From: Blasia pusilla
Lineage: Eukaryota
DNA: 64,000 nucleotides
Assembly (NCBI GenBank): GCA_050084515.1
Contig: CM114271.1
Span: forward strand, 11,780,001-11,844,000
Direction of reading: 5' to 3'
Position 1 is the stretch's first letter. Each line of letters opens with the position of its first letter. Under the pieces are notes generated by a model. That model was given only the letters and a program-made list of their open reading frames with translations, was not told the DNA's origin and made no database searches. Of this stretch, positions 18,301 to 60,100 are shown piece by piece. A program made the translations under genes and the position numbers.

Positions 18301-18397
18301 TTGGAAGGACCATGTGCGTAATTGTGCGCCATGTCATCTTCCAAATGTGGATGGTACTGTTGACCCAAGCTTAGCCATGATACGTGCTAGTTTGAGG

Positions 18398-18713: not shown

Positions 18714-19206
18714 GTTGTGGTACACTTGTGTTTGTGTATGCTCTCGTCTATATTATGTATGTATGTGACTATGGTATGTCAGCGATGTATGCTGTATGAC
18801 GATGTGGATTTGCACGACAGCAGTCATGACCATACGGATTATGTCGTAGAGTATAGTGTGCTAGTAGAGGCCATACCTTACGTAGGACCGTAGTGTCTAG
18901 GTAGAGATGCGGTTTCATACATAGGGTTAGGGGTTACTCAATGAGGGTGACTTTTCCAGTAGGGCCCGCTCTTAGGTTGGAGGATATAGTATGGAGTGCA
19001 CTCAAAGAACTGTTAGTTCTTTGAGTTGAGCCTGTTGCCTTGGGAGTTAGCCTTGGTAGTGAGTAGAGGTCTTGGTTGTGTTATGACTGTAGGTCTTTTA
19101 GTTATGGTACACTTGTGTATGTGTATGCTCTCGTCTATATTATGTATGCATGTGAGTATGGTATGTCAGCGATGTATGTTGTATGACAATGTGGATTCGC
19201 ACAACA
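18714..19206 (+). repeat. Internal B-A-B block: B 18714-18819, GC, A 18822-19100 (internally deleted), B 19101-19206
   Basis: Preceded by PPT AGGGGGGCGA. The sequence variant differs from A1 of this copy. Confidence 0.9.
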
Positions 19207-20213
19207 TTCTCCCTTTCAATAAGGAGTGCTGCTCTTTGCTTGGTGGTTAGATCTGGGAAGATACGGATAGCAGAATTTTTGAGGACTACTTTACTTTGGA
19301 GGATGACCAACCTCATTTCCATCGCTGGTCCGCGTTGTGAGGGATCAAATTGTACCAACATTGGCGTTGGTCGGTCCCCTATTCCTTTCCCAAGTCTGAT
19401 CCGTGTGAAGGTGACTGTTGGTGTGACCTTGAGAGTTGTGAAGACTTTCTCTTGCAAAACTGAATTATAGTCTTCTTCCTTGGAAAAGTGTAGTCCCATG
19501 ATAACTAAATTGAGTTCTTTGGTTTTCCTATCTTGGATTTCTAGGACCCTATCTGCTTCCTCTTTTGCTACCTCTTTGGCTACCTGTGTTGCAACCTCCG
19601 TGATTTGTGTTGAGGTAGTGTGCTTGCCCAGTACTTCAGTCCAGGCTCTAAGAGGATTTGCAGGGCTATTCCTTGTTAAACAATACTCTTGCATTGCTTT
19701 CCCAAGCTCAGTGTTATCCTCTTTGAAGCAGGCATCCAAGTCCTTCTTCAATTGCATGTTTTCAGCCCTCAAAGCGATCAACTCTAATTCCAGAGTTGTC
19801 TTATGAGCCGTCCATTCGAGGAGATTTGATTCCTCGGTGGACATCCATCTACCCTGCTCTTCTTTTGATGCCTGCATCATTGTATTCCATGCCAACATCT
19901 GGTTGGCCTGAAAGCTTTCCCATTTTCCTTCTAGTTCAGAGAACCTTCTAGTCATGGATGCCACTTCCAGATATGGTATAACCTCTGTTGAATGTGTGAC
20001 AGATGCATGGAGTCATTCCTTGTCACAGTGCCTCATTTTTTTCCCGACATAGTGGCGAGAGTTTGGGGCGATCAATCTCCGTGAGCCATTTGATCTCACG
20101 GATCGTCCATTGTCTCTACTCTTCATTTGCTTGTGGGAAAGATCCTTGACACAGGTCGTGTCTTGGACCTCCTCCGGTGAGGTTTCTAACGCTGGTTGTT
20201 CTGTGGTAGTCAT
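19207..20213 (-). pseudogene. LINE ORF1-like fragment (coiled coil plus RRM-like domain), 3'-truncated
   Basis: Coiled-coil stretch followed by KELNLVIMGL...RIRLGK...RPTPMLVQF...KVVLKNSAIRIFPDLT, the pattern of L1/CR1-type ORF1 proteins. Confidence 0.7.
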
Positions 20214-20515
20214 GGGTGCAGTGTTTACTCGATGTAGTGGTCGATGTGCTCAAGCAGTGGGAATGGGGAAAACAATTAGATAGGGTGTGCTTTACTCCAT
20301 AGAAACCATAGTCCCATGTATGGAGTCAGAGGGAGGTCAGAGCTTGAGAATCGTCTCAACATCACTGGCTTTTGCCCGTTCCATGGTTAGGCAGGATCGT
20401 CCAGGGAGGTGCAGCCCGATTTTGCTGGGAGTTCCTGGTCCGTGAGTAGAGAGAAGGGTATAAAGTAGGGAGACTCTGAAAACGGGGTTGGAATTTGACA
20501 GAAAAGTTGGACCAT

Positions 20516-20688
<173 letters not shown>

Positions 20689-20692
20689 TTGA

Positions 20693-21556
20693 TGTCTATG
20701 TTGGTGTGTGATCGATGTTCTAGGGGTTGGCACATGATGTGTTTGACTTCACGTATGGATGTTGTTCCTAGTGGAAGGTGGGTATGTCCTCGATGTATTT
20801 AAGAGAGGTAGATGACTTGATCTTTGCATGATATGGATTACAGATGTGCGACTAACGATGGGGCAACCTAGCACCCGACCTTCTGATTCGTGCATCCACG
20901 AAGGTGTATAGCATGTAGTAGATGTATAGGGCTACCACAGGAGTTAGAGGACCTAACCGCCGATTAGGCCTGAGAGTTGTGGTACACTTATGTTTGTGGA
21001 TGCTCTCGTCTATGTTATGTATGTATGTGAGTATGGTATGTCAGCGATGTATGTTGTATGACGATGTGGATTCGCACGACAGCTGTCATGACCATACGGA
21101 TTATGTCGTAGAATATAGTGTGCTAGTAGAGGCCATACCTTATGTAGGACCGTAGTGGCTAGGTAGAGATACGGTTTCATACATACGGTTGGGGGTTACT
21201 CAGTTGGGATGACTTTCCCAGTAGGGCCCGCTCTTAGGTTGGAGGATATAGTGTGGAGTGCACCCAAAGAACAGTTAGTTCTTTGAGTTGAGCCTGTTGC
21301 GTTGGGAGTTAGTCTTGGTAGTGAGTAGAGCTCTTGGCTATGGTGTTTCCCGCAAGCTTCGACCTAGATTCTCCCATCATGGAGTGGGTTTGGCTCGATT
21401 GTATGTGATTCTATACGTGTTTTATGACAGTAGCTCTTTCACGGATTTTAGTTGTGGTACACTTATGTTTGTGGATGCTCTCGTCTATGTTATGTATGTA
21501 TGTGAGTATGGTATGTCAGGGATGTATGTTGTATGACGATGTGGATTCGCACGACA
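20693..21556 (+). repeat. Second 3' end of copy 1: half PHD, 3' UTR, B1 20976-21081, GC, A2 21084-21450, B2 21451-21556
   Basis: Repeats about 18433-19206. A2 shares diagnostic bases with A1 (TTGGGATGACTTTCCC, TATAGTGTGG, CCCAAAG). Followed by the TSD. Confidence 0.92.
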
Positions 21557-23425
21557 CATGACCTACTATCCTTTGGACATCTAGGACATAGCCATTATCT
21601 CGTGGGAACTGCGGCTAGAGGGAGGGTCAGACACGACATATGTCACCCTCAAGAACAACCATCACACACCAACATGGTGTGGGCACCCCTTGCAGATCCA
21701 CACAACATACACCTCAAGCCCGCAAGTACTATTTCCAAGCTAGGATCCATTTTCGGGTCCATGTTTGGAAGATGACATGGCGCACATGATCCTTCCAAAC
21801 CATACCATATCATCCCTTCCCTCCAGCAAGAGGACTCCAATCAGTAACGCCTCATGTCTACGCAAAATCATACACCCTCCAATGACATCTCGTATCATGG
21901 GTGCCGCCTATTGTAAATACACATAATCTCTAGGATGAAACCTCCTAATCCCCTGGACGATAACCTCCTCCACGAATGATTGCGTACCTCAATGTATCCT
22001 TATGGTGAGCAACCGGTAAGTTCTCAAATGCCATGGGCATAAGTCTATGAAAAATCTCTGCCCTTTAAGAACATGCTTGCAACCACACATCCAGGTCATC
22101 AAGATCCAACACCACCGCCATGTCACTTTGAATGGTCGCTAGTAAATCCTGCTCTCTCCCATAGAACAAAATATACGTGAAAATGAGGCCAAGGATGCCA
22201 ACTGAAGCGATATTCCATAGCCAACCAAGGAAATTGTAGGTCTACTCCCTCAAGTGTACATTCTACAAGCCATACTTGCGCAACCCTCTCTTACTTATAC
22301 TTATGTCCGGTTGGCACGCATATACCTTTCTTTATTATCTGACATAGTCAACTAATAAAGAAAGGTAGATACGTGCCAACCGGACATAATCTCCTCATCA
22401 CTCTCTTCGTGCCATTGAGCTCTTGTGTTCTCTCTAACTCGGGCATGGATTGCGATTCAACCCATCTGCATCTTGATTCAACCAAACTCTCCTATGAACC
22501 ATCTCAAACTCATACTCCTATAGTAATAGAGTCCACTTGGCAAGCTTCCTCATAAGCTTATCGGACTCCATCAACCACCTTAACGGCTGATGATCACAGA
22601 TAAGTGGGGGAAATGATTTTCAAATAGATAGCACCTGAAATGTGCCACATCCCACATTACAACCAAACAATCTCCCTCGTAGGAATTGTATTTTGCCTCT
22701 ACAATATTGTTCGATTGGCTTGCATAAGCCATAACGAACTCCCTCTTCTCTTCATCTCTTTAAGTGAACAATCCTCCTAGACCCAACATGCTCCAATCTG
22801 TATGTATCTGGAAAAGAAGACACGTAACCGGTCTCTGTAAAATGGTTGAGGATATCAACCTATCCTTGAGCTCTTGAAATGCTTGCTCCTTATCATCTAC
22901 CCAATGCCAAACCTAATCAAGTCTCGTCTTCAAGGTCAAAGACTTTGCGATCGCACTAAAACTCTTAACATATAGTCGATAGAAGTTCGCTAGTCGTAGA
23001 AATGCTCGTACTCAACTCACATTCATAGGGGATGCAATCTAGGAAATTCCCTCCACCTTAATTTACTAACACCTAACCCACCCAGGTAGATGGTGTGTCC
23101 CAAATACTGGATCCGCTCTTGAAAGAACCTGCACTTGCCTAGATGCAACTTCCGTCCAAGTAACTGCAATCGCCGAAACACCTCCTCGAAGTGTCGCTCA
23201 TACTTCTCAACCGTGGAATTGCTGATAAGGATATCATCTATGTTACACCGTGCAAAATCCAAGCCAACTGGACTTCTATCCATCACTCTTTGGAACTCCG
23301 CAAGGGCGTTCTTCAACCCAAATGGTAAGAACCACCATTGGTACAAACAATCTCTCCCAAACCGATCTGTCACCAAAATTGATGTCTTCTCCCTTTTCTC
23401 CATCCAGATAGGAAGTTGATGATCC

Positions 23426-26400
23426 CCAGAAATGGCGCCAAAATGTCATAGCAAGTAATACATGGCCAGCACACAACCCAAGTGAAAATATTGCTATTTC
23501 CACCAGTTCGGTCCCATGTAAGAGCTTAGGGCCAGGCCAAAAGATCAGAACTCTATGATGTACTCCTTAATAGCTGTAAACCCCACCTCTTTACCTTAAG
23601 AGGCTGGAGAAACAATCTCCACTTCAGTATCACAATCCTATCCTCACCACACTAACCAAAACTCCTTCCATTCTCTTGAATGCTTTGAGTGGAGTGGCCA
23701 GTGGAACCCAACAAGCACACTCTACTTAGAAATCACAATCAAGAATGACCAGGGCAGCATAAGGTCCTCCAATGTGCTCCCTTGGACTAGTTGAATGTAC
23801 CAAGGAAATCCTCTAAAGCACACACAACTCCTAACTGATCAAGTAGTGCAATCACCTTTTGATCCTCACCGAGTATCTAGTAAGAGCTTGGATGTAGTTT
23901 TTAGTCCTTAGATAGAGTGTCCAGTGGCAATCCAACCAACACACCTACTCAAGGCTCACAACTAGAGACTACTAAAACAACATAAGGCCATCCAATACGC
24001 TGTCTAGTATAATCATCCACCCCCAGGGTAGCCTAAAAGGGATGCAACTCTCTATTTGCTCAAACCAACACCCACATCCCTTCTTCTTCTCCTCTTACCT
24101 TGCTGGTCCTTTGTTCTCCCTCCTTGTTCAGGTAGTAGGAGACTTAACAGGCTGAGCCCATGGTCTTCTACCTCTAGTGAAGCTCAAGCATGACCATCTT
24201 TCTCCACTCACTAATCTCTTATCACTTAGCAGACCTGGAAGTCCAGGTTGTCACATCCTAGAAGTAATCAATGATTGGTGTCAAAGGCCATACTCAGGTG
24301 GGCACAACAACAAGCTTTCAAAGCACACCTTGGAGGAGTACAATCTTGGAACCTAAGCTTGCCTCCTCTATTGGTATAGCCTCTTGTCCACTCACTACAC
24401 TTTTGAATGATTAGTTGAACTAGCTCCAAGAATCTCACTTCATCAAGCCCTCCAACTCATCACTCAATCATGCACAAACTCAAATACAGGGTAGTGGAGT
24501 GAAATCATTCCAAAGGGGCTACTTTATGTATATCACAAAGCCATCTAGTACATGGGAGACCTTCTTAGTCTCAGCCCCTTCAAGCACACTACACACTACC
24601 TAGATCTGGGAGCACATACTCTGCTGGTTAGCTTGGCTGAAGAGATCAAGTGTCTGCATGTATGCCCCCCTTTACTAAACCAAGCTGAGCACTTATAAGT
24701 GAAGCTGAGAGCCCTCTACCTACTTGAGCTTCTCTGGTATTCTTGTCTTCTACCTTCCTATAAATCTACCTCCCCCTAAGCATCTACTCCAAGGCATCTA
24801 CTGCCTGAAATTTCTACCTCATCTACTTCTGAACCTGCCCTAACTAAAGCCTCTTGAGCAGCATTGATGGCATAGGCTCGACTTGTCTCTTGGACATGCT
24901 TGAAGGTAAGATATACCTCTATATTCTTCCCATGCTTGCTTCTTCTCAAGCTGGTTCAAGCCCTGCCCTCAGTTCACACCTCCACTTAGCTCCACCTGCA
25001 CAAATCTTCAAGAAATCTCTCCTTGGATCCTCTCAGCTCCATAGATCTCTCCCTTGGATTCTCAAGCTTTCTGGCCTTCAAATGAGGTCCTCTAGGCTTC
25101 CATGAGTAACCTTCTAGCCCACAAGAGTCCAAGCATTTGAGCTCAGCCTCCATTGACCTCTTCTTAGCCCCTTATTCTTCATTTCTCGGCCCTAACAATC
25201 AGATCCACCTCCTTGGTTCGAACCCTCCTCTACAACAGCAATCAAGCACTCTATCTCCTTCATTGGATACCCTGGATACTCCCTAGTGCCTAGACCATCT
25301 CCCTTGGATCCTCTAGGCTCAAGGTCAATGGAGTGACCTGGCTGCATTATCACTTTGTACAATCTTCTTGACTTGTTCTCGGACAGCCTGCTGCAGGGCC
25401 CTTCTCTTGCACCACCTCCCTGTATTCCAGCCTCCCCTCCAGCCTCCCCTCGAGCATCCTATGTGCCCAACCAATCCTTGATAAGCTTGATTCAAGAGCA
25501 CAAACATATTAAGAGTCCAAGGGCAAAGATATGCCACCACTCCTCTCAAGCATTGGTCCATCCAAGCCCTTGAAATCACCCTACCTAGTTGTCCACTTTT
25601 CTGTCACCATAGCTTCCCAAGCTCAGCCCTCGTGGAGTATCCTATGCTCCTCATTACTTGCTGAAAATTCTTGTGGGTGACCTCCATAGTTGAGAGCATC
25701 TCAAGGCAAATCCATACCATCAATCATATCAAGATTTGGCTCACTAGTGCTCTAGGTAGCAGCCCTCGGATAGCCTGCCCTCCTATTTTCCAAAAATCCA
25801 GATTCCTTGCCTTTCTAATCTACCTTGAGAATTCTAGCCTAGCATCCAATGTCTTGATTCAAATGTATCATCTTGAAGAGCATCCAAAGACCTTTCTAAC
25901 GAGCCTATTCAATCACCAAACCGATCAGCCAAGCTCTAGCCATCAACATTTGATTCTCCCCTCTATGCTGGCCACCATAGCTCCAAGCTTTGTCATGTGC
26001 CCGTCGAACTTCAGGCCTAGACACTTTCCTATTGACACTATTCTAACCTCACTCTACTGGCTAGTAAGTCCCCTCTAAAACTTCCCCTAACTTAGCCACC
26101 GCTTTAGTCGACCTACCAGTTTAGAGTGGCCTTATAACTCCACTAAAAACCTTCCCTAAGTCAAGCCTTCCTAGTAGAATTTGATAAGTGCTATGGAGAG
26201 GTGTCCCATTCATCAATCACTTTCTTAACACTGATTATCTTGGCCATTGGCTAACCCTACATACACTCAATCCAACCAAGGTTGACTTAACTACAGCTAA
26301 AGTAACTACGGTTATTCTAACTAGGGTTAATTTAACTCTTGTTAGTCTAACTACAGCTAACCTATCCCCTCGTTAGACTTAAGAGCAGAGTGCTCACCAG

Positions 26401-26618
26401 GTTGCCTCACTATACCCTTGTTTTCTCTATCTAGGTTACCCTGGTTAAAGAGTACCTTGAGTTAAGAGCATAGGGTAACCCCAACTAACTACTTCTATCA
26501 CCTAACTCACCCATTTAAATTGTAGACTGTTGTTCTAGCTCCTTCCACTCACCTAACTAGAGACCCAAAAGTATCTAACACACATGGGAGCCACTTATGA
26601 AGGGGCGCACAGCCAACA
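23426..26618 (-). mobile_element. About 3.2-kb insertion in the RT of family 2; possibly a long LTR with an Athila/Tat-like PBS
   Basis: Splits RT between STLDLH and HQLPI. The minus strand starts TGTTGG, ends TGACA at 23444, and is followed by TTT-TGGCGCCATTTCTGGGGA. Confidence 0.45.
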
Positions 26619-28019
26619 TGGAGATCTAAAGTACTGAAGATCTTTGCATGCCCTACCGTATCAAAGATCTCCTTAGGAGTAGGAATGGCATATCGATCTG
26701 ACCTCATCTCTCGATTGCTAGGACGGTAATCTCCACACATCCACCTATCTATCAAGTTGCCAAACATATCCTTCTTTGCCAGCGTGATTGTGGTAGATGC
26801 ATACTCACCATGCGATAACTCCATCAGTCTTGCCTCCCACAAGTCATGATACCTACAATGAATCAAGGTTCTTTCCAAATCACAATACCTATAGGGGCGA
26901 AGAAAGGTCAGTGTATCACTAACCAAATCTATTTGTATCCTCATACCCTTCAAAGTACCCAAGTCTCTCATACTCAAGGAAAAAACTATGTATCCACTGT
27001 CTCTCTCCTTTTTTCAAGTGGAGAACTATCATAAGCCCCCAAGTCTCTATTGTGACCTCACTCGAAGAAGACACAACCTCCGACTTTGGTTGTTATGTAG
27101 CAACCCTAGCCACCTCCACTACGACCACCCCACTCTAACCTTCCACATCATGCTTCACACCGGAAAATGAACATATGCTACTCTAGCCGTCTACGCACTC
27201 TCTGCTCAGAAAACGTCCCAAGAAGTCCATGTGTGCATATCTCTCCTCGTCTCGCCCCTAGGCAATCCCTCTATAGACCTTGTAGGAAATGCAACAACTT
27301 GTAGACGTGACGACATGAATGACACTCGCATATGCCTTTGCTCAGTCAAACCTAGATTGACTATCCATGTGAGACACTTGAGGTCCATTGTATGCCCCAA
27401 CACTTCTCTCCGTGATGCCTCTGTCACATTTGGCATTTCCATAGTACCCATAGTGAACCTCATGGCGCACTCGCGCTCATTAACTTTGGGCTCCTCCAAT
27501 GCTCGGGTCTCTTCAGCCCATATCATGCATGGCCCTTCCTGATGATAGGCATGGGATGCGGGAAAGCTCATCAATGTAGATAAGGCCGCCCTCGACTCCC
27601 CCACCCTATTGGCTATTGCCAATGGTGGTCTATCATATATCCTACCTCACCACTTGAGACCGACGCGGTGGACCCAGGATAGCATCCACTATCAAGTGTG
27701 GTACTCTCTCAACTCCATCATGAGCTTGCCTCAATACCTTTGATGGTTGAAGGTTGGTCCACCACAACCGTACCGTAGACAGAGAGCATGCAATCCAACT
27801 CTTGTTGCATCCAAAAATACGGAAGGTCCCAATCAAAACCTCACTTCATGCACACTTTTCATCACCCGTGCACGAGTGTCTCCCAACAATGGCTCGTTCT
27901 CCAAAATGAAGGCTGGAGAACATGTCTAACTCTAATGTAAGTGTCTTAATACTCAGAGCTTCTCCCAAAAGATCCCTAACCTTGGATTCCTCAATCCAAA
28001 CCCTTAGACAGCCGATGAA

Positions 28020-45339: not shown

Positions 45340-46036
45340 CTCAATATGGCTCCAAATGAGCTGAAACGCTCGAGAAATCTGCTATGACAAGTTACCCGTG
45401 GTCTCAGCATATCATCCTTGACCTCTTGAGGTTGTCCTCTAGTATCTCCGAAGGCGCTCTACTAGATCTCGCCGATCGATCCTAAAAGACGTGATAGTTA
45501 TTGTGCGCATACACATCGCTACACAACATACATCGCTGTCACCGAACATACACAGAAACACGCACGATCTCAAGCTAACTCATGGAATATACACAATGAG
45601 ACGAGAAGTACCAAAATATCTCCAATCGTCCCTCTAGCTGGTGGTTAGGTCCCTCTAACTCTAGATATCCATCTATCCCTACCTACCATGACATACATCT
45701 CTCAGACGCTAAGAGCGAAAAGGCCGGGTGCTCATGTGGCTCCATCGTTAGTCGTCTTCTTGTCATCCATGTCACAAACATAAATCAGAATCTAGAACTA
45801 TCTTCCCTATGTACATCAGAGACACATCCATCGTCCCAAAGGAACCCTAATGAGATGTGGCGTCAAACATGCCATATGCCATCCTCTCGAACATCCATCA
45901 TATACTAGCATAGTGGTTGCACCACGAGCGAAACCACACAACATATATCGCAAGCCTGCAAGAACTATTGCTAGGCTCAGATCAACTATACCGTCAATGT
46001 TAGGAAGGTGACATGGCGCATAGTTACGCATATGGT
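45340..46036 (-). mobile_element. 3' part of older family-3 element (PHD, 3' UTR, PPT about 45627-45636, B about 45499-45626, start of A from 45496)
   Basis: DHMRNYAPCHLPN...YMLCGFARGATTMLVYDGCSRGWHMACL...WMCL. Conserved GAGTTAGAGGGACCTAACC before the PPT. Decayed junction CACAATA-AC-TATCAC. Confidence 0.8.
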
Positions 46037-46408
46037 CCTTTGTCATGACCATACGGATTATGTCGTAGAGTATAGTGTGCTAGTAGAGGCCATTCTTTAT
46101 GTAGGACCGTAGTGGCTTGGTAGAGATGCGGTTTCATACATAGGGTTGGGGGTTACTCAGTTGGAGGTGACTTTTCGAGTAGGGCCCGCTCTTAGGTTGG
46201 AGGATATAAGGTGGAGTGCACTCAAAGAACAGTTAGTTCTTTGAGTTGAGCCTGTTGCGTTGGGAGTTAGCCTTGGTACTGAGTAGAGCTCTTGGCTATG
46301 GTGTTTCCCGCAAGCTTCGACCTAGATTCTCCCATCGTGGAGTGGGTTTGGCTCGATTGTATGTGATTGTATACGTGCTTTATGACAGTAGGTCTTTCAC
46401 GGATTTCA

Positions 46409-46419
46409 CTCAAAGAACT
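46409..46419 (+). promoter_or_regulatory. Putative self-priming primer-binding site (copy 2)
   Basis: CTCAAAGAACT is the exact reverse complement of AGTTCTTTGAG at 46235-46245, which starts 30 nt after TATAAG (46205). Confidence 0.8.
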
Positions 46420-47889
46420 GGAGTAGATCGATGGTAGCTTCGATTGTAGATCAGTAGGATCTGGTTAGGGCAAATTGTGTACTCAGCCGTGGATGTTCGT
46501 GGCTTGCGGCCTATGTTGGAGGTGTGAATCTGGTGTGTGGTTGATTGGAAAAGAAGCGCCTTGCTGAGAGCTTTCCAACGTGCTTTAGATCGCCAGATTT
46601 CGTCAAGGGAGTTGGAAGTTATCAAGGATTGAAGATTCTGGTTCGTGTTCGACGGTTTTCTGATGTGCAGAGCTTGGAGTGCGGAAGCTCTGTTGAAGTT
46701 GATCCAGATCGGGTGAGAGGTTCCTGCTGCTACTTGTATTGTGATCTCATGTGAAGCTATCTGCTCGAGTGTGTGGAGCGTTGCGGATTTCTGCGTGCAT
46801 GAAACTTGGCGGAAGTGATGTCGGATTTACGATTCTGGAGGTGTATGGACAGCAAGTTTGTCTGATTTTTAGCTCGGAGTAAAGAGCTTGGTTGTAGCTG
46901 ATTTTTTGTGGAGAGATAGCTATGGTGGTCAATTGAATTTTGGTCGAAACAAAGTTGATTTCGGTCACGGATTTGTGAAGTAATTGCTGATCGAAATTTC
47001 GCAGACTAGCTCAAGGTCTGGCTATGGTGGACAACGGATCGGAGGGTCTGGTTGGTTGGTGACTTGTTCATTGTTGGAGACGCCTATCCCATTGGGGGCG
47101 CCCTGGTTGGGCCTCTCTCCATAGCGAAGCATGGTGAGGCTTCGAGGCAACTCGTGGTAGCTCGGGCGAGTGGGCGAGTGGGCGTGAGAGACGGAGTAAG
47201 GAGCAAGGAGCAAGCAAGCAAGCTTGCTTGCTTGGGCATGAAGCAATTTTTGCAGGATTTGTGATTTGAGTGTTGCATAACTGGTCACCCATCTTTGGGC
47301 TATTCTGCCTGGAGGACGCTTATCTGCTGAGTTCTTAACTATGCCAATGTACACACTGTTGTAGCTCATTTGGTGCTGTCCGGAGATGTGTTAGGCGCTT
47401 TATGCATCTCAGGTTTTTGGTTGATGTACCTCTAGCGCATAGTACGGTGTAACCTCTCCATGCAGGTGATATTTTCAGGTGCTACGAGTTCGACTAGCAC
47501 GTCATCGACCCGCGGCGGAGTAGCTATTGCGTTAGAATTGTGTGGTGGGTTTTATGGAGTCAGGGGGCACCACGTTTGGTGGATTGTGTTACCTTGATTT
47601 CCATTTGCGATTGGAGGGTTGTCGTTGGACTTCTTGTGTTTGGATCCCCTCCATCGTTGCTTCTTGCTTGCGCGCCCATTGTTAGGGTTGACGCTGATTT
47701 CCAGAGTAGTGTTACTCCTGTGTGCTACCGATAGTGAGGCTGGAGTGATGAGCAGTAGACTGTGGGAGGCTTCCTGTGGTGATGACAAGTTAGGTTGCGT
47801 ACACCCATAGCTAGTAGAGCTAGAATATTATAGCGACATCGACGTCACTTGGTTATTTGGTGGTGGTAATTTGGTGGTGGTGCGGCATC

Positions 47890-50280
47890 GGCGTTGGTCA
47901 TCACGGAGTCATTTGTCGGGTGGTGGTTGGGGACCGTGGTGCGGACAGTGGTGGTTTTACACGGAGTGGATTTAGGTATCGGCTACCTTTTCCACTTCCG
48001 ACAGTTGATGAAGAGGAGGACGAGGGTGTTCCAAACACCGAGTCTTCTACGTTGTTATCGAGTGTTGCAGCTCCATTGATTTGGGATATGGACGGTGGAT
48101 ATGGGGCCATGAAGGGCCCACGACGATACTCGGGTGCAGTGGGCACCATTGAGTTGGAGGACTTCATGCAGGAGTTTGATACGTGGTGTGATATGCAGAT
48201 GTTGCAGAACGCCATGTTGTTTACACCCTTCTTGGCTTGGAAGGGGTTGTTTATGCTCTTGGAAGGACCACCCATGGATGATTACCATGAATTTAGGAAG
48301 GACCATGTTGCTGAGATTGAGGAGTGGAGACAATATTGGTCTCTGGGCTATGTGTCTATCACCCATGGTGGTATTGGTAGTAGTGCTCCTACTATGCCAG
48401 CCAGCCCGACGTTGAGTGGTACGAGTACGAGCCGGAGTGGGGGTATCAGTGGAGGTACTAGTGCCCCACCATCGTTCGGCCCGGTTGCAGAGTTCTTCAA
48501 GAGGTTGAAGAAGAACTATCAGGGAGTGAAGACGGAGAAGTTGAGGAGTCTTCAGGAATTTGAGCGAAAGACTGGTGAGAGTCTTCGTGAGGCATACACT
48601 CGTATGCGAGGCTTGTTTTCGGTTACCCAGGATGTGACTGAGGATCAGGCACTCCAATTTTGGTATGGGATCTTGGAGAGAGATTTGCGCCGTAGGGTAC
48701 GTGATGCTACTCTTATGAGTGATGATTCACCCACATTGACCCGTGTGTTTGCTCTATCTGAGAAGATTGAGCTTAACATGGTGAAGGAGAGAGTGGTGAC
48801 ATCCGCATTTAGTAGGGATACAACTACTACTTCTTGTGTTCAGCAGCCCACCTCACAGTCTCGTAGTAGTGGTGGTGGTAGTAGTAGTGGAAGTCGTGGG
48901 GGGTACACACGACCTCAGTCAGGTCCTAGAGGGACACTTGCGTAGAGACCATTGCCTTCATTTGCTGCCCCGGCAGGGCGATCATGTTGGACATGTGGAG
49001 GTGATCATGTTAGGAAGTTTTGTCCCCAAGAGGATGGGAGACGGACTTTGGAGGATGGGCCTCAGTCGGCCCCGACTCAGTGTGATCATTGCGGGAGACC
49101 AGGTCATCCTCTAGAGCGTTGCTTTGATCTTCATCCAGAGTTGAGATCAGGCCGCGGCCGTGGTGGAGTAGCTCCGAGAAGCCGAGGTGGTAGAAATGGT
49201 AGGGGTGGTAGAGGTGGACCAGTGGTTGGAGAGCCTACGGTGGCTACCCATACCACTACGACAGAGTCAGCTATGGTTGCCTGGATTGAGCAGTTGGAGC
49301 AGAAGTCGGCTACAATGGCTCGTATCCAGCATAGATCAGGTTCGGAAGCAGGGGCTTCCACCTCTTATGGAGGGGATGATCTCTCTTATATGGCGAGTGC
49401 AAAGACAGTTGAGTTGAGGCATCAGTGCGATTCTGAGAGGAGCCACTCGAGCGTCAAAGCCATGTGGTGCTACTGTGGAGTTGGACCCACAGAGGGGTGA
49501 GGCTGGGAGGCAGGCTAGGCTTCCCCATTCATTCTTGTTGTCAGAGGTGCTTAGGACTCCATCCATGGTTCCTACGCAGCCTATTGAGCCGACAGTGGGG
49601 ACTAAGGCATCTACATCGCGTGTAGTAGACACGGATGCAGCATCCAATGCAGTATTGCGGATGGCAACTTCAGTGTTGGGATCCCCATTATTTTCGGCCA
49701 CGGAGCTGATGGCTTTAGGAGTTGACTTAGATCTTGTATTTCAACTAGCAGCCACGTTGTGTGAACGTGGGGGTGTTACTGCTACAGGTGTTGAGGTGGA
49801 TGAGGGTGTTGCGGTGGAGCCACCCTCTATGTCAGGTGTAGCATTGAGTACCTGTGCTACTTGGCAGGCAGCAGCGGCGAAGATGGATGCATTACTAGCC
49901 CGGCCAGACATTGATTGTGAGAGGCTTACACCTGGTGTATGTATGTTGGACAACCGGAGTGGGATCTTCCGATTGGTGAGTCCTACAAGACAGGTGTATA
50001 GACCAGATAGAGTCTTGTTAGACTTTGGTGCCCAACCTTTGATGTTGGGAAAGGCGGCATGTATTGGTTTGGGTATTCGGAGGTAAGAGCTTGAGCCTTG
50101 CCCATTCCAGATTCAAACATCACTTGGAGGAGCCAATGATAGGTCTCAATTCATGACACGGGAGAAGTTTTCTGTACAGTTGAGACCAGATCATGCGATT
50201 GATAGCTCCCGGTTGGGAGTATCTGCGGTAGTCACATCAGCCGAGTCGTATGATGTACTAGTTGGAGGAGCGATGTGTAC
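47890..50280 (+). pseudogene. gag and protease (copy 2)
   Basis: Near-identical to copy 1: two zinc knuckles, RGG tract, RVLLDFGAQPLMLG. Confidence 0.85.
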
Positions 50281-50741
50281 CCGATGGGTTTTGGTTGGAT
50301 TATCGAGAGACAGCGTCTTATAGACCTGGTTGGAAATCCGGGGATGGACGTATGAGCCAAGTTCCTATGAGATTTATTTATGGGGCTCGACTAGGAGAGT
50401 CTTCCCCAATAGTGTTAGCATCTGTGGCTGGTTTTAGTGGAGTAGTCACTTGGCCATGAGACTTTTTGGAGGGTAATGTTTCTGCTATGGATTCTTATGC
50501 GCATGAGGAGGTAGAGGAGGTCCCTGTTTTTGCAGTCGTGGCATCCTCATTGTTAGATGTGCCACTTTGGAGTTCAGGCGGTGCACTACGGCAGGAGGCT
50601 GATCGCCTAGTGCAGGAGGCTTGGTGTGAGGCTATTATACCTCACGAGGAAGAGGAGGCCCCACAGCGGACTCCTACTTCTGGTCCAGTTGGGTTATCCC
50701 CTTTGAATACTACACGCATTGTATGGCAATATCCGCTGGAG

Positions 50742-51715
50742 GGCATTTGTGTGTTAGATCTCTTTGGTGGCATTAGCACTGGTTTGGCTGTAGTGTTGCA
50801 GGCCCGTATTCCTGTGCGGAGATACGTGTATGTGGAGCGAGATGAGACGGCCCAAAGAGTCTCATCCTGACATATTGGTCAGTTGATGTGGAGATATCCT
50901 GAGTTGTTTCCGCCATCAACTATTCGTGGGTACCAACGTGCTTTTCCGTCACACATTGCATTGTTGGGGGCGTAGGACCTTGAGAGGGTTGGTCCTGTGG
51001 ATTTGGTGATTGTTGGATGGCCATGTCACGGTCATACACGTGCTGCTCGTGGTGAGGGATTACATGACCCTAGGTCTCGATTGTTTTGGGAGATGTTACG
51101 GGTGTTACGACATCTTCAGGTTCATCAGGCACGTGCTCAAGTTGACATTCTGGAGAATGTTCCATTGTTGGGTGACACTCGAACCCGGATGATGGCGAGT
51201 GTTCATGAGGTGCGGTCTTGGATTGGACCAGCGGTGTTGTTGGATACAGCGCGAGTTGGCTCGCGTGCACATCGTTTACGCTTGTGGTGGACAAACTTGT
51301 TGCCTAGGGAGGTTCTACGTCGAGCATATGATGCAGTGCAGCGGGATCCTTGCCTTACAGTGGATAGTATCTTGGATACTGGGCGACTTTCTCAAGTGGT
51401 GAGGGTTATTGATCGGTCACCCATGGCAGTGGTGAACCGTGTGGGCCAGCCTAGGATGGCACTACCCACATTTGTGAGTTTTTCCTCGTCACATGCCTAC
51501 AGAGAAGGTGGTCCGGGGCTTGTATGGGATTCTCATGTGCGACAGTTGGTGGAGCCTAACGCTGATGAGAGAGAGCGTGCGATGGGATTTGCTCTTTGGT
51601 GTGGCGTTGTTGCTTCTATTTCTCACGCTTCACGACGTCATGTGTTGGGTCAGGCCATGGACCTGAATTTTTTGACTTGGATTTTGAGTTTTGGTATGGC
51701 CGAGCAGCGTCGACT
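50742..51715 (+). pseudogene. DNMT3-like C5 methyltransferase domain (copy 2)
   Basis: VLDLFGGISTG, YVERD, DLVIVGWPCHG, ILENVP, AHRLRLWWTNL, ERERAMGF, SRRHVLGQAMD. Confidence 0.93.
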
Positions 51716-53265
51716 CCGAACTATGTCTATGGGTCTTCCACCCCTTGTAATGAGCTCGATGGCGACCGGGACGGTAGAGGCATCGGCTGGGGGCGAGGAG
51801 AGTAGTATTTTGCATCCTTGGAGTAAATGGGATGTAATGGTGGGCATGTGGAGTTGGTTGCTCATCTTTGGTGGAGGAGTTATTTGCTCAGATGATGGTG
51901 TAGGTAAGGGTGTACCATCTTGTGAGGGGGTTACGTAGCAGCCAATGGCATCGTCCTCTCCCTCTAGTGTGCCAATGGAGGAGACTTGGGAGCCATTTCT
52001 TGGGCCCAAGCTTACGGGAGGTGAGAAACGACGCTTGACACAGTTCCTACGTGCTTATAGGAGTTGTTTTGCCTTTAGCATGAAGGAGTTGGGTTCTCTA
52101 GTTGGACGCGGTATACGGATTGATTTGGCTAGTGATACGCCAATCTTTCGTCGTCCCTACCGATATAGTGATATGGAGAGGGACCTGATTCAGAGTAGGA
52201 CGTTGGACCTTTTGGAGGCTAGATTAGTGGAGTTGTCGCATGGAGAGTATGCATCAGCCACTGTCATGCCTGCTAAAAAGGATATGTATGGCAACTACAC
52301 GAATAGGCAGATGTGTGGAGATTACCATTCTATCAATCGGCAAACCAAGGCCGATAGGTATGCCATGCCTACACCTGAGGAGAACTTTGATGTGGTGGGA
52401 TAGGCAAAGATTTTCGGTACTTTGGATCTTCGGGCAGGATACATAGACCTGGAGTTGCCAACCTTGATGCCGATGGGTTGAGTAGGAACCCATGTACTAG
52501 CCAAGAGGATACAACTGGGGATAGATGGCATGGCGAGGTTGATGAGGAGATGGTGTCAGGTTGGCATGCATCCGCCTTTTTATGTTGGTTAGGGGTGGAC
52601 TCTAGTATGGAGGATCACATGATATCTTACTCTAGTCAGAGGGTAGATGGCCAGCCTTCAGATCCTAAGGTTGGAGATGGTGGTACGGATCAGCGTGATA
52701 TTCATGATGATTCGTTGGTGTTGGAGTTCCTACGGACCAGTAGTGTGCCAAGCATAGTGAGTGCCAAGGAGCGAGACCGTGTTCTTCAACGTGCTAAGAG
52801 GTATCGAGTGGAGGGAACACATATTCTCCGCGTGTGGGAGGATGGTAGAGTACGAGTAGTGCCACATTTGGCTCAGAGAGAGCGCATTGTGCGACATGCC
52901 TAGGAGGAGTTGGGATATTTTGGGGTAAAGCGTACATTTAGCTTACTCCTTGGCCAGTATTGGTGGCGTGGCATGCATACTCATGTGCTGCAGTTGGTGT
53001 CACGTTGTATGGTTTGTGACCGGGTGAGTCGTGTGGTTCAGACTCATGTTGGAGGGTCTAGAATCTAACACCTCGTGCACTTGTACAATAGTGTGGTTCA
53101 GACGGTGAAGAAGGCATTGCGCAAGTATCACACGTCTGACTCATGTTGGAGGGTCGTGATGGAGTTGTTTGGAAGGACGATGTGCATAATTGTGCGCCAT
53201 GTCATCTTCCAAATGTGGATGGTACTGTTGACCCAAGCTTAGCCATGATACGTGCTAGCTTGAGG

Positions 53266-53406
53266 TGCATGTTGTGTGGGTCTGCTGGTAACGCAGCCCG
53301 TATGTTGGTGTGTGATTGGTGTCCTAGGGGTTGGCACATGATGTGTTTGAATCCACGTATGGATGTTGTTCCTACTGGAAGGTGGGTTTGTCCTCGATGT
53401 TCTTAG
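53266..53406 (+). other. PHD finger (copy 2)
   Basis: CMLCGSAGNAARMLVCDWCPRGWHMMCLNPRMDVVPTGRWVCPRC. Confidence 0.92.
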
Positions 53407-54165
53407 GAGAGGTAGATGACTTGATCTTTGCATGATATGGATTACAGATGTGCGACTAACGATGGGGCAACCTAGCACCCGGCCTTCTGATTCGGGCACC
53501 CAAGAAGGTGTATAGCATTTAGTAGATGTATAGGGCTACCTGGGAGTTAGAGGGACCTAACCGCCTGTTAGGGGGGCGAGTTGTGGTACACTTGTGTTTG
53601 TGGATGCTCTCGTCTATGTTATGTATGTATGTGAGTATGGTATGTCAGCGATGTATGTTGTATGACGATGTGGATTCGCACGACAGCTGTCATGACCATA
53701 CGGATTATGTCGTAGAGTATAGTGTGCTAGTAGAGGCCATTCCTTATGTAGGACCGTAGTGGCTTGGTAGAGATGCGGTTTCATACATAGGGTTGGGGGT
53801 TACTCAGTTGGAGGTGACTTTCCGAGTAGGGCCCGCTCTTAGGTTGGAGTATATAAGGTGGAGTGCACTCAAAGAACAGTCAGATCTTTGAGTTGAGCCT
53901 ATTGCGTTGGGAGTTAGCCTTGGTACTGAGTAGAGCTCTTGGCTATGGTGTTTCCCGCAAGCTTTGACCTAGATTCTCCCATCGTGGAGTGGGTTTGGCT
54001 CGATTGTATGTGATTGTATACGTGTTTTATCACAGTAGGTCTTTCACGGATTTCAGTTGTGGTACACTTGTGTTTGTGGATGCTCTCGTCTATGTTATGT
54101 ATGTATGTGAGTATGGTATGTCAGCGATGTATGTTGTATGACGATGTGGATTCGCACGACACCTT

Positions 54166-57100
54166 CCAAACCATACCATCGCGTCCCTCCAATAAGAGAA
54201 CATCAGATGGCAAAACCTCACGCACTCTCAAGATAGTGCGCCCTGTAATCACATCCAATATTGTGGGTGCCGTATGTTCCAAGTAGACATAGTCTCCCTG
54301 ATGAAACCTCCAGATAGTTGGTCGATAACCACCTCCCAGAATAGTCGCATACCTCAACGTATCCCGATGTTGCGTAGTCGCCAAGTTCTCAAACGCCATG
54401 GACATCACTCTCCGAAACAACTCAGCCCGCTTAGAACATGCTCGCATCCATACATCAGGGTCATCAATATGCAACACCTCACCAACATCTCGACGAATGG
54501 CCGCAAGTAAATCTGGCTTGCGGCCATAAAGCAGCAAGTACGGTGAGAAAGACGCTAAGGGTGCGTGCTTGGTGAATCTGTATCCCATCGCCAATCACGG
54601 AAATTGAAGGTCCCAATCTCCTAGGTGACCTCTTTGTAAGCCAAACTTGCGCAATCCTCTCGTCACCGTCTGCACAATCCTCTCCGCTTGTCCATCCGCC
54701 TCAGGATCATCTCGTGAAGTGGTGATGTGGTCGATCAGCGCCTGATCACATAAGCTAGGCCTGAAACTCCCCATGAAACTCCATACCCTGGTCTGTCAAC
54801 ACCTCAGCTGGTGCGCCAAAATGACTCAGCACTCGATTTAGGAAGGCATACGCTACTTCCTCACTTGCTTTTTCAGGCAATGTAACCAACTCTATCCACT
54901 TTGAGAAGTATTCGACCATCACCAACACATAACGACTATGGCACTCCGTCAAAGGTAAAGGTCCTGCAAAATCCAAATTCCATCTTTAACCTAAATCCAT
55001 GATCGGAAGTGGATGCAACTGTGGAGTCGGAGCATTCAACGATGCTCGAACCCGATCACACACCATGCACATGGCAACAAACTGCTGAACGTCAGTTTGT
55101 ATGCCTCGCCACCAATACTATATCTGGAGCAAGTTTTACGTCCACTTCACTCCAAAATGACCCAACTCGTCGTGGGCATGACGCACTAAACGTGCTCTCT
55201 ATGAAAGATGAGGAACTACACATACTCTACCATCCTCCCAAACTCGCAACACATGTGTCCCCTCCCACTTGAACCGTCTAGCTCGTTGTAGGATCCGATC
55301 CCGCTCTCTAGCATCCATTGTCCTTGCCACACTGCAAGTACGCACGTACTCCAAGACTTCTCCATCGTTGTGAATATCTCGGCCACCTCTCGTCCGCTTA
55401 CTCGCGTCTGGATCTAAGGACTCTCCATCAGACCTGTCCATCAAAGTCTCAGCAATCCGGCTCTCCATAGCCAACAAGCCTAAATAGGCTGACGCGTGCC
55501 ATTGTGGCACCAACTCCTCATCACTCTCACCATGCCAACGACCTGGAGTCGCATCCTGCTGACTCGGGCATGGGTTACGACTCAAACCATCTGCATCTTG
55601 GTTGAGCATCCCATGTCTATGCACCAGATGGAAATCATTCTCTTGCAACAAGAGAGCCCATCTTGCAAGGTTCCTTGTAAGCTTGTCGGACTCCATCAAC
55701 CACTCAAGTGGCTGATGATCAGTAATAATGGTAAAGGGGTTGCCGAATAGATAACACCGGAGATGTGCAACAACCCACACTGCAGCCAAGCACTCACCTC
55801 ATATGAGCTGCACTTCGCCTATGCATCGTTGTTCGAGCAACTAGCATAAGCCACCATGAATTCTCTACCCTCATCATCATGCTGGGTGAGCACGGCTCCA
55901 AGCCCCAACATGCTCCAATCGGTATGCAACTAGAAAGGATGCCCCCTTATTGATCTCCTCAATATGGGCACGGACGTCAATCAATCATTGAGTGGTTGAA
56001 ATGTTCTCTTCTGCTCATCCCCCCAGTGCCATTCCTGATCCACCTTGGGCAGCAAGGTTAGCGTTTGCAATCAAACTGAAATCCTTGAGGTACCTTCGAT
56101 AGAAGTTCGCCAACCCCATGAATGCACGAACTCGACCCACATCTGTAGGGTGTGGAATGCGTGAAATAGCCGATACCTTCATCTTCTGCAAACCAAGGCC
56201 ACCTGGTTATATCGCATGACCCAGGTACTCAATCTGATCGTAGAAGAACTTGCACTTGCCTGGATATAGCTTCAACCCATGTAATTGCAATTGTCAAAAT
56301 ACCTCCTTTAGATGTCGCTCATGCTCCTCAATTGTGGTGCTAAAGACTACGATGTCATCAATATAACACCTAGCAAAATCCAGACATGCCAAGATCCTAT
56401 CCATGATCCTCTTAAACTCAATCGGGGAATTGTTTAACCCAAATGGTAAGAACCGCCACTGGTACAAACAATCCTTCCCATGAGGATCGATGCCCCAAAA
56501 TGCCGTCTTTTGCTTGTCCTCCAATCTGATAGGCAGCTGATGGTATCCAGCTTGAAGATCTAATGAACTGAAGATCTGTGTATGCTCAATAGCATCAAAG
56601 ATCTCCTTAGGAGTGGGCATAGCATACCTTTGTCTGCGGATTGATAGGTCGGTAATCTCCACACATCCGCCTATCTGTCCAATTACCATGCACATCCTTC
56701 TTGGTGAGCATGACAGTGGCAAATACATACTCTCTGTGCAACATCTCCACTAGTCTTGCTCCAAGAAAGTTCTGGCTCCTACTCTCAATCAAAGCCCTCT
56801 CCATATCACTGTACTTGTAGGATTGTCGAAAGATCGATGTGTCGCTCGAAAACTCAATGCAGATCCCTAGACCCTTTAGTGTACCCAAATCATGCATGCT
56901 AAATGCAAAACAACTCCTATAACTCCTAAGGAACTGAGGTATCCGTCGCCGCTCTCCTTTTGTCAACTTAGGGCCCATATTTGGCTCCCAAGTCTCCATC
57001 GTGACTCCGGTAGGACTCTATGGCGAGGGTGTTGGTGGTTGCTATGGTGCAATCCCGTCTCGGACAGTAGAACTCGACTGCTCCCCTGTAGCCAACTGCC

Positions 57101-60100
57101 AAATCTGATCTCCTCCACGTGTAGTACCCGGAACCACGCTCGATGTTGTGGCTATCATCTCTGGGCGTACCTGAAAAACATCTGAAGAAGTCCAAGGGTG
57201 TCTCTCCTGATCATCCTTGGTGTGTCAATCTCCTTGGGTCTCGCCCCAACCACTGCCTCAACCGTCTCGATAGGCATGGGGCTCACCAAGCAACAGCTAT
57301 AACCTGTCGTAATCTCAAACGACGTTGCTCAGCAACTCCTAAGCTGAAAATCCATGTCAAGCAGTTCAAGTCTATCGCCTGACCCAAGACATGACATCGT
57401 ACTGCCTTTGATAGTGACGATGCTGCCATCACCCTTGTGGAAAATCATATTGCTCGCTCTCGCTCAATGGCGTTGGGCTCCGCCAACTGCTATATCTAGT
57501 CATCCCAAACCAAACCAAGTCCGGCCTCCTTGAATGCATAGAAAGCGGGAAAAATCACAAATGTGGGAAAGGCTGCCCATGGCATGCCAATCCTGTTGAC
57601 CACAGTCAACGGAGATCGATTATGGTGCCGTACTACCTGTGACCGACAACCTGGATCTAGAATAGAATCCACCAACAAATGGAAGGGGCGCTCCACTCTC
57701 GCATACGCCCTCCGCAACACCTCATGTGGCACCAAGTTGGTCCACCAAAGACGCGGGTGATGTGCTTATGAACCTACAATTTCTGCATCCAACAATACTG
57801 CCGTGCCAATTCATGGGCGCACCTAATGTGCACTTGTCACCACGCGGGACCTCGAATCACCCAAAATCGGCATTTTCTCGAGAATGTATGTTGGAGAACG
57901 GGACTGATGCTCTTGCAAGTATCGCAAGATCTGCATCATCTCCCAGAACAACCTAGACCGAGAGTTAGCTAACCCGCTACTTTTTCCAACACTCGATCGG
58001 CAGTAACATGACCAATCTGTGCAATGACCAAATCTATGGTCCCTACCCACTCCAAGTCTTGCGCCCCCAACAAAGAAATGCCTTACAATAGGGAACTCTG
58101 GTAACCTTGGATGGAGGACGCAGACAACAAGTCGGGAAATCAAAGGCGTAATTGCGCCACATGGTGAAGTGAAGCGCGCCTCGCAAAGTACAAGTACTGT
58201 TGCATGCGCACTCTTGCTTGCAAAACAACATCCAACACATAAATACCCTCCTCTGGGATGCACCACACAATCGGGGTGGTGTCCCAAGGGGTTATAGTAG
58301 CAATCCTGGCTACCTCGGGTTCCTCTGACCTGTCATGCTCTGGTGCAAACACCTCACTCCAGGCCGTTTGCACGTGCGTTGGAGCTCCTCACTCAAGCCC
58401 CACAGCGGCACCTCTCTTCCACGGAACGGTGCGGCTACCATATCACTCCTCTCCCTAGAAATTTTAGACGCCGAGTTATCCTCTGCATGGATATGCTCCT
58501 CAATCAACTCAAAAGGCCACGTGATGGCGCTGCTAAATGCTGCTAAAGTCGCCATCTCTCATGGCCGTCGCTCAATCACTCCACTTGTGAATCAAACGGG
58601 TAATGAAAAAATTCGTCCATCACCGGACCGCCATCTTGGTGCGTTGGATGCTGACTCCTCCAAGTAATCCAGGGAAAATCCCATCATGTACAACACTGCT
58701 CCACCAACCAAGATACCATAGGACCGTACATCGATCACTATTGCCTTCGCTCGCACCACGGACTCATGTGTAGGATGTCTTGGGCAAATCCTCACCACAA
58801 CCTTCTCTCCGATGATAAATTGTGTGGTACTTGCTCCACCCAAGGCTGTGTGTATCCGAAATGGAAAACGTTCAACATCGGCCCTTGTCAGGCCCAACCC
58901 TATAAACACGGCTTTCCTCAACATCAGGGGTTGCCCTCCTGAATCTAACAAGAAACGTTGTGGAAAAAATAATCTACCTCATGGACTCACCAACTGGAAG
59001 ATCTCTCCCCGGTTATCCAGCAACACAACACCTGGAGCAACCATGGCTCGCTCTATCATGTGTCTAGCAGGCATCTCCGCCATCCTAGTAGCTGCAACCT
59101 ACCATGAATCTAAGGTGGACGGCCCAAGCATCGGCTCCAAGGGCAGGTCCATCATCTCCTCTACAATCACATCTGAACGTGATGCAGAAACACCATCTCC
59201 ACACTCACATAGCGTAGCGGCCAACCAGAAAACCTCGGCGGGCGTACCTCCCAACGTCATAACATCAAAAGTAGAAAATATCAGAGCACGGTACACCATT
59301 GTGGCTACCCCCAACATCATACTTGACACATGGTCCTCCCGAGCATCAGCAATAGGAGTCATCGCACTCACTTCTCCCATCCCCCTCCGTGCTTGTACAC
59401 CAACAACATCAACTCTCCGGGAACCCTGATTAGGACCCATCGATGGGATCCTCATTGCCTTGGACAACGTAAAGACTCAGGAAGCTTGGTCAATTTCATG
59501 GCTTCTCCTCTTTGTGGATTCACCTCTGCGGAGGCTCCACGTGTAAGAGCAGTGGCTGCCTCTAACTGCACAGTCGCGCACATCCAGCGAGGATCCTCCA
59601 TATCTCTGGCTGCTCCATAAGACGTCGATGCCACGGCTCCGAGAGTGGGTAACCTCAATGCCACAGCAAAAATATGATGTTGTAGCTGCTGTATCTGAGC
59701 AGCCATCCCAGCCTCATGCCCGACGTCTCCCTCGACGCATCTAGGTGGTGGGACTCTACCTCCTCCACGGGCAACTCCACCATCCCCTCGAGAAAATCTA
59801 GCTCCTGGTCCCCTATTGGGACCACCTAGTGCACGACCTCTAGGCCCACCCGGACCGGAAACTCGCTCTGGTGCCCTCCCTGGTCCTTGGTCCAGACGTA
59901 ACTCAGGGTGTAAGCTGAAAAATAGCGTACGTGTATGACCATACCTGTGACAATAGTCACATTGATTAACTCGTGGTGTAGCACCATCTCCTCCTCTATG
60001 ATGAGGTACGCGCCCATGACCCTGACGAGTGCAATCGCACTGGTGATGGGCTCCACCACATGCCCAACAAATAATCACAGCCTGCTGCTGTTGAGTTGCA

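Follow-up and report, generated by a model that had tools for sequence, protein, structure and literature searches.

Split terminal repeats with internal integrase ends and 4-bp target site duplications in a Gypsy-DNMT3-type retrotransposon lineage

The 64,000-nucleotide stretch of Blasia pusilla DNA analysed here (the window; contig CM114271.1 of assembly GCA_050084515.1, positions 11,780,001 to 11,844,000 of the forward strand) contains at 46041-54161 a dead copy of a streptophyte Gypsy-DNMT3-type Ty3/gypsy retrotransposon with permuted terminal repeats. This element, hereafter copy 2, has a single repeat A1 (368 nt) at its 5' end and, at its 3' end, a polypurine tract (PPT) followed by B1 (106 nt), the dinucleotide GC, A2 (368 nt) and B2 (106 nt), with the target site duplication (TSD) CCTT on either side. 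An earlier, sequence-only reading had proposed this split layout, which is borne out by a repeat search, blastn and the sequence itself. The split layout is a trait of the lineage, common to diverged families. We think it somewhat probable that it arises when end-joined (circular or concatemeric) cDNA is cut open at a palindrome within the LTR (long terminal repeat) and integrates with a 4-bp stagger.

Copy 2 lies on the plus strand. Its A repeats (A1, 46041-46408; A2, 53688-54055) were 97.55% identical over 368 nt in the repeat search and blastn, and its B repeats (B1, 53580-53685; B2, 54056-54161) were 100% identical over 107 nt, or 106 nt without the adenine shared at the A end. The 5' junction reads ggtCCTT/TGTCATGACC (slashes mark junctions throughout), with the left TSD at 46037-46040. 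The 3' junction reads aggggggcga/GTTGTGG..CGCACGACA-GC-TGTCATG..GGATTTCA/GTTGTGG..CGCACGACA/CCTTcc, from which it follows that the right TSD (54162-54165) adjoins B2 and not A2. One integrase end, TGTCATGACC, opens A1, which closes with ..GGATTTCA; the other, ..CGCACGACA, closes B1 and again B2, where it forms the right end, and the outermost bases of the element are TGTC...GACA. The end of B1, the spacer GC (53686-53687) and the start of A2 together form the palindrome GACAGCTGTC (53682-53691), the proposed integrase cleavage site. The internal region (46420-53542; gag-protease-Dnmt3-reverse transcriptase (RT) and beyond) is decayed: relative to copy 1, a second member of the same family in the window, RT/RNase H is shorter by about 0.9 kb and integrase by about 0.85 kb, a weak C5-methylase remnant persists in the open reading frame (ORF) 50976-51938 and most other domains are lost. 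A conserved block (53543-53579) follows, closing with the PPT aggggggcga (53570-53579). A 34-nt portion of it, GAGTTAGAGGGACCTAACCGCCTGTTAGGGGGG (53543-53576; a small hairpin plus the G-run), recurs in other families with different sequence to its left and right (loose-end reads: 46-73 and 25-47).

The ends of copy 2 could be fixed independently because it splits a related minus-strand element, M2, for which an empty site is available. Positions 15450-18308 of copy 1 match 56997-54162 and positions 18305-18713 match 46040-45626, so that the break in M2 homology falls at the two ends of copy 2, and M2 paralogues that lack the insertion read ...ACGCACATGGT/CCTTCC, where CCTT is present once (55 and 44 RNA reads; 29 and 22 DNA contigs). 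The sequence-only reading had delimited copy 2 by CCTT and by the restoration of a host reading frame. Ends and TSD hold, and the interrupted M2 confirms the ends, while the "host" frame turned out to be that of another retrotransposon.

Relatives of the window elements were collected by an RT-integrase alignment scan of metagenome contigs, which returned 437 candidate stretches, 346 of them encoding relatives. The best 80 were taken as loci (L plus a number); they lie on moss- or liverwort-like contigs, with RT identities of 40-83%. Loci were processed by self-comparison, mapping of an A/B library and printing of junctions, and duplicates were then removed by flank. The 3' terminus PPT-B-xx-A/B was found in 22 independent cases, namely 21 including three in the window, plus L054, in which B2 is internally deleted. 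All 24 mapped 5' A copies, corresponding to about 20 loci by eye without formal deduplication, read flank/A-primer binding site (PBS), and none of the 24 had a B beside the 5' A or the mirror arrangement A/B-xx-A. Among 13 elements with both ends, 11 had a perfect 4-bp TSD and none could be extended to 5 bp, compared with 4 matches when the same test was applied to 728 shifted windows. These 13 elements occupy different loci with different flanks and show 10 distinct TSD sequences; in L043 three of the four TSD bases match, and L058, without a TSD, has pol of a related element in its downstream flank. A tally of end configurations and TSD lengths over the genomic copies had been suggested with the sequence-only reading; the tally over the window and metagenome loci came out in favour of the layout. 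An apparent "B-A-B" arrangement at 13199-13948 of L042, present in L043 and L046 as well, was left out of every count, since it turned out to be an unrelated direct repeat of 155 bp that lacks any features of an element.

A second form, A...PPT-B/flank, was found at 12 termini, two of them with a perfect TSD (L013, TGTT; L062, CCAA). It could reflect cutting of both palindromes of a linear cDNA, a B1 x B2 deletion or collapse of B by the assembler; all of these termini come from short-read metagenome contigs, in which collapse of B or recombination looks identical. One pair, L016 (1-2713) and L018 (38-2750), is 99.4% alike over 2.7 kb and splits exactly after the B end plus AC, past which one continues into A2-B2 and the other into unrelated DNA.

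As claimed in the sequence-only reading, A1 and A2 carry common copy-specific variants: the nearest neighbour was the own partner for 15 of 18 A sequences, and A1s did not cluster apart from A2s. Such homogenisation within elements is expected if both repeats are remade together in each cycle. Pairs (B1/B2 and A1/A2) differed by 0-14%, with B1/B2 more alike than A1/A2 in 10 of 10 elements. This difference was considered as a sign of separate templating and dropped, since B also changes less than A from one copy to another (copies 1 and 2, for instance, are 99% alike in B and 95% in A), which suggests constraint on B or a lower mutation rate.

The two integrase ends, TGTCATG... and ...CACGACA, stand back to back in the palindrome GACA-GC-TGTC, within the predicted LTR. 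The spacer between ...ACA and TGT... was 2 nt in all junctions printed, and its letters were GC, AC, GT or AT, the latter three being transitions of GC, save for TC in L053, whose locus is the same as that of L055, with GC. These letters point to the palindrome GACAGCTGTC as the ancestral junction. The A/B joint, by contrast with a B1 start that the copies share, varied between copies: CA/GTTGTGG, CA/ATTGTGG, C/GA/ATTGTGG and a 17-nt filler plus a PPT-derived CGA were all recorded, and in family 2 the joint consisted of TTCA, then AT, T or nothing (zero to two PBS-like bases), then ATACATG. Judged by these letters, the variable joint appears to have the anatomy of a two-LTR circle junction and behaves like a newly made one. 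In a tree of the 3' internal region set against A/B joint type, nine of 13 inner branches were without resolution.

Signals for LTR-type priming accompany the split repeats. A G-run adjoins B1 in nearly all printed termini, and the bases at the A1 end have an exact 12-15 nt complement about 30 nt past the TATA box in families 1 and 2 (the pairing in L009 was read by eye). In copy 2 the putative TATA box, read from the sequence, is at 46205-46209 (A positions 165-169), and 30 nt past it the putative transcript start and self-primer AGTTCTTTGAGT (46235-46246; A position 195) is the exact 12-nt complement of the putative PBS ACTCAAAGAACT (46408-46419), where RNA and DNA reads pass from the A end into CTCAAAGAACTAGAG... 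The paired letters differ in the three families: ACTCAAAGAACT/AGTTCTTTGAGT in family 1, AATTCTAGAAAAACT in family 2 and CTTGACAAGAATG in L009. This arrangement looks like a self-priming signature of the Tf1 type. By eye, no match beginning with TGG, as in a tRNA-type PBS, was seen right after A1, host tRNAs not having been compared. With a PPT by B1 and a self-priming PBS by A1, ordinary LTR-type synthesis should yield LTRs of B-GC-A, in which B1 would be the start of U3 and A2 would supply the rest of U3, R and U5. An LTR consisting of A alone, or of A+B with a PBS after B, was ruled out, given that the TSD adjoins B2 and that no B occurs at any 5' end.

RNA was examined in two stranded runs deposited under the same species label as the window, which agreed with each other. 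Sense depth was 95-200 from the internal 3' end across the PPT, B1 and the GC spacer to half-way through A2, dropped to 40-50 towards the A end and was down to about 2 in B2; transcripts appear to end within A2, and 26 reads crossed the A end into the PBS. B2, almost unread, lies outside the main RNA, and the A2/B2 joint, which fuses the end of U5 to the start of U3, must therefore be remade at each transposition. A few RNA reads (3 and 7 per run) jump from A position 318 back to 30 (54005 to 53717, going back 289); either a template switch or a variant copy in which A is partly duplicated in tandem could be behind this.

The proposed route would combine these elements as follows. To judge from the anatomy, transcription would start about 30 nt past the TATA box in A1, the first 12 or so RNA bases would pair with the site by the A1 end and prime the minus strand, as in Tf1, and the G-rich tract would prime the plus strand at the start of B1, giving a linear cDNA with LTRs of B-GC-A. 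The A end (U5) would then be joined to the B start (U3), through ligation that closes a two-LTR circle or through a plus-strand template jump. Integrase would nick after CA on both strands of the palindrome beside the PBS, and the opened molecule, A-PBS...PPT-B-GC-A/B with 2-nt 5' overhangs, would be inserted with a 4-bp stagger. The joining step and the palindrome cleavage are inferred. The sequence-only reading had envisaged a distinct replication and integration route. Its replication half was not supported as stated: the priming signals (PPT and self-priming PBS), the RNA coverage and the homogenisation of A1 with A2 are all compatible with ordinary LTR-type reverse transcription and an LTR of B-GC-A. 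What is unusual is the position of the integrase ends, and hence the integration substrate.

Several observations weigh against end-joined cDNA as the source of the layout. A symmetric two-LTR circle contains two identical palindromes and predicts a mirror product, A/B-GC-A...B, that was seen at none of about 20 5' ends. An asymmetric join, or fast collapse of mirror forms, would be needed to account for this; if, for example, the plus strand at the right end switched to the already completed left end, a discontinuity would be left only at the PBS-side palindrome. Likewise, cutting both palindromes of a linear cDNA predicts the A...B form, of which 12 termini exist. The sole pile of RNA read starts, at 53849 in one run, sits at the TATA box and not at the predicted start, and about 1% of the sense RNA depth runs into B2.

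This read-through lends some weight to an alternative in which ordinary linear cDNA integrates and the extra B2 has another origin: a minor read-through RNA would be its template, or host repair or recombination would append it once the element is in place. The A...B elements with perfect TSDs (L013 and L062) could then stem directly from linear cDNA in which both palindromes had been cut. In the standard model of LTR-type reverse transcription, however, the 3' tail beyond R is not copied, the A/B joints differ where B1 is the same, which argues against faithful copying, and host repair would not add exactly one B ending in ..CACGACA by the TSD in 22 independent cases. We consider this explanation unlikely. 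We regard as very unlikely a replication of the DIRS/Ngaro type with the recombinase exchanged for a DDE integrase, in which full-length single-stranded cDNA would be circularised via a B1-A2 bridge and B2 and A1 would be inherited separately from the parent. The DIRS replication model is reportedly due to Goodwin and Poulter. The order A1...B1-A2-B2 is the layout described for DIRS-order elements in the legends of Figs. 1e and 4c of PMC5890265. A parental B2 that is nearly absent from RNA, however, cannot serve as template, and the conserved PPT by B1, the covarying self-priming site by A1, the homogenised A1/A2 pairs with A1s not set apart, the 4-bp TSDs and the failure to find a tyrosine recombinase in the ORFs scanned all stand against that route. 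That the layout did not arise by transposition at all, but by rearrangement of an LTR that segmental duplication then spread, or by faulty assembly, is scarcely credible: copy 1 does contain a secondary rearrangement (18713-20696), but the 13 elements have separate loci and flanks and 10 TSD sequences, the layout occurs in three or more families 40-83% alike in RT, paralogous empty sites are present in the reads, and repeat pairs diverged by 0-14% would not have been made by an assembler.

The coding capacity places the elements among Ty3/gypsy retrotransposons. Pfam was run on ORF pieces, 17 from the window and, for the near-intact relative L009 (59% RT identity; two long ORFs parted by a stop), all those of at least 90 aa on either strand. 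Copy 1 had matches to RVT_1, RT_RNaseH and Integrase_H2C2, a weak match to rve and a PHD finger, and the L009 ORF pair to an aspartyl protease, DNA_methylase, RVT_1, RT_RNaseH, Integrase_H2C2, rve and PHD. The named proteins nearest to the window RT-integrase were from liverworts, first Calypogeia fissa (77% identity), then Marchantia polymorpha and Riccia sorocarpa, with Klebsormidium nitens and Closterium at about 40-45%. The best solved relative of L009 pol was Ty3 Gag-Pol (7q5b, E 4e-98), and its D, D, E triad lines up with the catalytic residues of prototype foamy virus (PFV) integrase. Residues 940-1086 of L009 ORF1 match PF00145, a Dnmt3-like C5 methylase within pol, upstream of RT, whose closest solved relatives are DNMT3A/B/C. 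As the sequence-only reading had it, a DDE integrase is present without a tyrosine recombinase: PF00589 had no match in the 17 window ORFs scanned or in the L009 ORFs. The L009 contig (1-9317) was assembled in the permuted order internal-PPT-B-gt-A-PBS-5' untranslated region, as an assembler would do with an identical A1 and A2, and alone it is no evidence of a circle.

Judged by Pfam on L009 and copy 1, pol runs in the Ty3/gypsy order of protease, RT, RNase H and integrase and includes an H2C2 zinc finger as well as a DDE core, and the lineage has a short TSD of fixed length (4 bp), a PPT before the 3' repeat and a putative primer site after the 5' repeat. The two identical LTRs with outer TG...CA integrase ends that define the group are lacking, TG and CA sitting at the A start and the B end. 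With DIRS elements the lineage has in common the split repeats A1...B1-A2-B2, but neither the tyrosine recombinase nor insertion without a TSD, whereas both features of Gypsy-DNMT3 elements, a Dnmt3-like methylase upstream of RT and DIRS-like repeats combined with Gypsy domains, were found.

The closest known system is KnitGypsy-Dnmt3 of Klebsormidium nitens (de Mendoza et al. 2018), to which DIRS repeats and Gypsy domains are attributed in the legend of Fig. 4c (PMC5890265). It shares the Gypsy-type pol with an internal Dnmt3-like methylase, and K. nitens proteins are 42-44% identical to the window RT-integrase in pairwise comparison; the present elements differ in origin, with a liverwort-like host for the window and contigs of moss- or liverwort-like character in the metagenomes. 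The passages of PMC5890265 consulted contain no TSDs, integrase ends, PPT/PBS positions or mechanism for it, although the supplements may hold more. The label "streptophytes (Gypsy-DNMT3)" is used in bioRxiv 10.64898/2026.05.21.726589, which mentions neither split direct repeats nor a target site duplication, and the literature searched yielded no description of TSDs, integrase ends or mechanism for such elements. As far as those passages go, the layout has been noted in print once before, for KnitGypsy-Dnmt3, and left there without explanation; what is added here is a TSD of 4 bp, a palindromic integrase site inside the LTR, the signature of self-priming, a B2 that is not transcribed and an A/B joint that varies.

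Other systems resemble the lineage in single features. Elements of the DIRS order carry a tyrosine recombinase and are not known to leave a TSD. The repeat order A1-coding-B1-A2-B2 is that of their PAT-like and Ngaro members, but the methylase is Dam-like (adenine) there and Dnmt3-like (C5) here, and the present elements have a DDE integrase, 4-bp TSDs, a PPT, a PBS and an untranscribed B2. In Tf1/sushi-type elements, according to what is reported from Levin's work, the transcript start is complementary to a site just past the 5' repeat. The self-priming complementarity found here in three families, with different letters, is of this kind, whereas the two LTRs of Tf1 itself are of the usual identical kind and terminate in the integrase ends. 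Bacterial insertion sequences of the IS3/IS911 type use a DDE enzyme on abutted ends, a few bases apart, in a circular intermediate, but they are DNA elements without reverse transcription and offer an analogy only. TOC1, which the sequence-only reading had cited for its layout, is called a non-autonomous DIRS element in PMC9940879. Integrase cleavage of LTR-LTR palindromes is reported for PFV and human immunodeficiency virus type 1 (HIV-1) (PMC1180852, PMC1905944). In two-LTR circles of these viruses (also PMC4372172), integrase is reported to act on a palindromic ...CA-nn-TG... junction between the end of U5 and the start of U3, and the joints vary by PPT- or PBS-derived extra bases, as here. 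There, however, the circle is a side product and the palindrome is made by ligation, while here the palindrome is inherited in the LTR and the ligation-type A/B joint ends up inside the integrated element.

Copy 1 (9648-21556, plus strand) is flanked by CATG (9644-9647 and 21557-21560), with junctions CATG/TGTCATG... and ...CGCACGACA/CATG. Its repeats are A1 9648-10014, B1 20975-21081, A2 21084-21448 and B2 21450-21556, and its coding remnants are an RT-RNaseH-integrase zinc finger ORF (15664-17490), an rve remnant (17578-18081) and PHD (18026-18538). The sequence-only reading had given it the same ends as copy 2 with TSD CATG, which the sequence supports, but it also has an inner 3' terminus on the plus strand (18713-19206; B-GC-A'-B, with A' truncated). 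Unrelated DNA of 1.49 kb comes next, with a (GA)n run at its end, and copy 1 sequence resumes at 20697. The inner and outer termini are 91.6% identical, the distance between separate copies, and the inner one looks like an ectopic conversion from another copy together with its flank.

Copy 1 is itself inserted in an element of another family, M1, whose 3' end (8788-9581, minus strand) has the same split layout as copies 1 and 2: PPT, B1 (9581-9444), spacer gt, A2 (9441-8910) and B2 (8909-8788), then ACTT. Inverted repeats of about 100-160 nt, 88% complementary, just past the M1 end (7800-8442) may be a small foldback or MITE-like (miniature inverted-repeat transposable element) element. The 3' part of M2, the host of copy 2 (45501-46040, minus strand), comprises the pol end, the PPT block, B1 ending in GCGCACAATA and spacer ac, with the A start TATCACG below 45499, and the remainder of M2 runs from 54162 to about 58080. 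The M2 family is transcribed on the minus strand at a depth of 25-85 in both RNA runs (54134-54500), so at least two families of the lineage are expressed. Copy 1, copy 2 and L043 (at about 3387) lie antisense within related elements, about 35-600 bp from the host pol end or PPT, and L058 and L048 also lie in or beside related elements; this nesting, in about 5 of the 24 insertions with flanks examined, may reflect a target preference or simply DNA rich in transposable elements. The coding strand of the elements is strongly G/T-rich (GC skew +0.2 to +0.3 and negative AT skew at 10001-22000 and 46001-54000, mirrored at 22001-28000 and 54001-60000), so that element orientation can be read from strand skew alone.

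For annotation, programs that match A1 to A2 will lose B2 and see neither a TSD nor a PPT beside the "LTR". They will therefore place the ends wrongly, or reject outright a family that bryophyte-like genomes contain in abundance and transcribe, as the sequence-only reading had expected of LTR finders. For evolution, the elements indicate that DIRS-like split repeats need no tyrosine recombinase. For mechanism they pose a puzzle: an ordinary Ty3-like integrase and LTR-type priming are combined with ends at an internal palindrome and one joint remade per cycle, which makes testable the old question of whether LTR-LTR junctions are true integration substrates. Our broadest proposition, offered tentatively and at rather less than even chances, is that an entire streptophyte lineage of DDE-integrase elements needs end-joined (circular or concatemeric) cDNA as its normal integration substrate, opened at an inherited 10-bp palindrome in the LTR. 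If true, the two-LTR circle would for the first time in any retroelement be on-pathway and not a dead end, and this would provide a mechanistic bridge from LTR to DIRS architectures.

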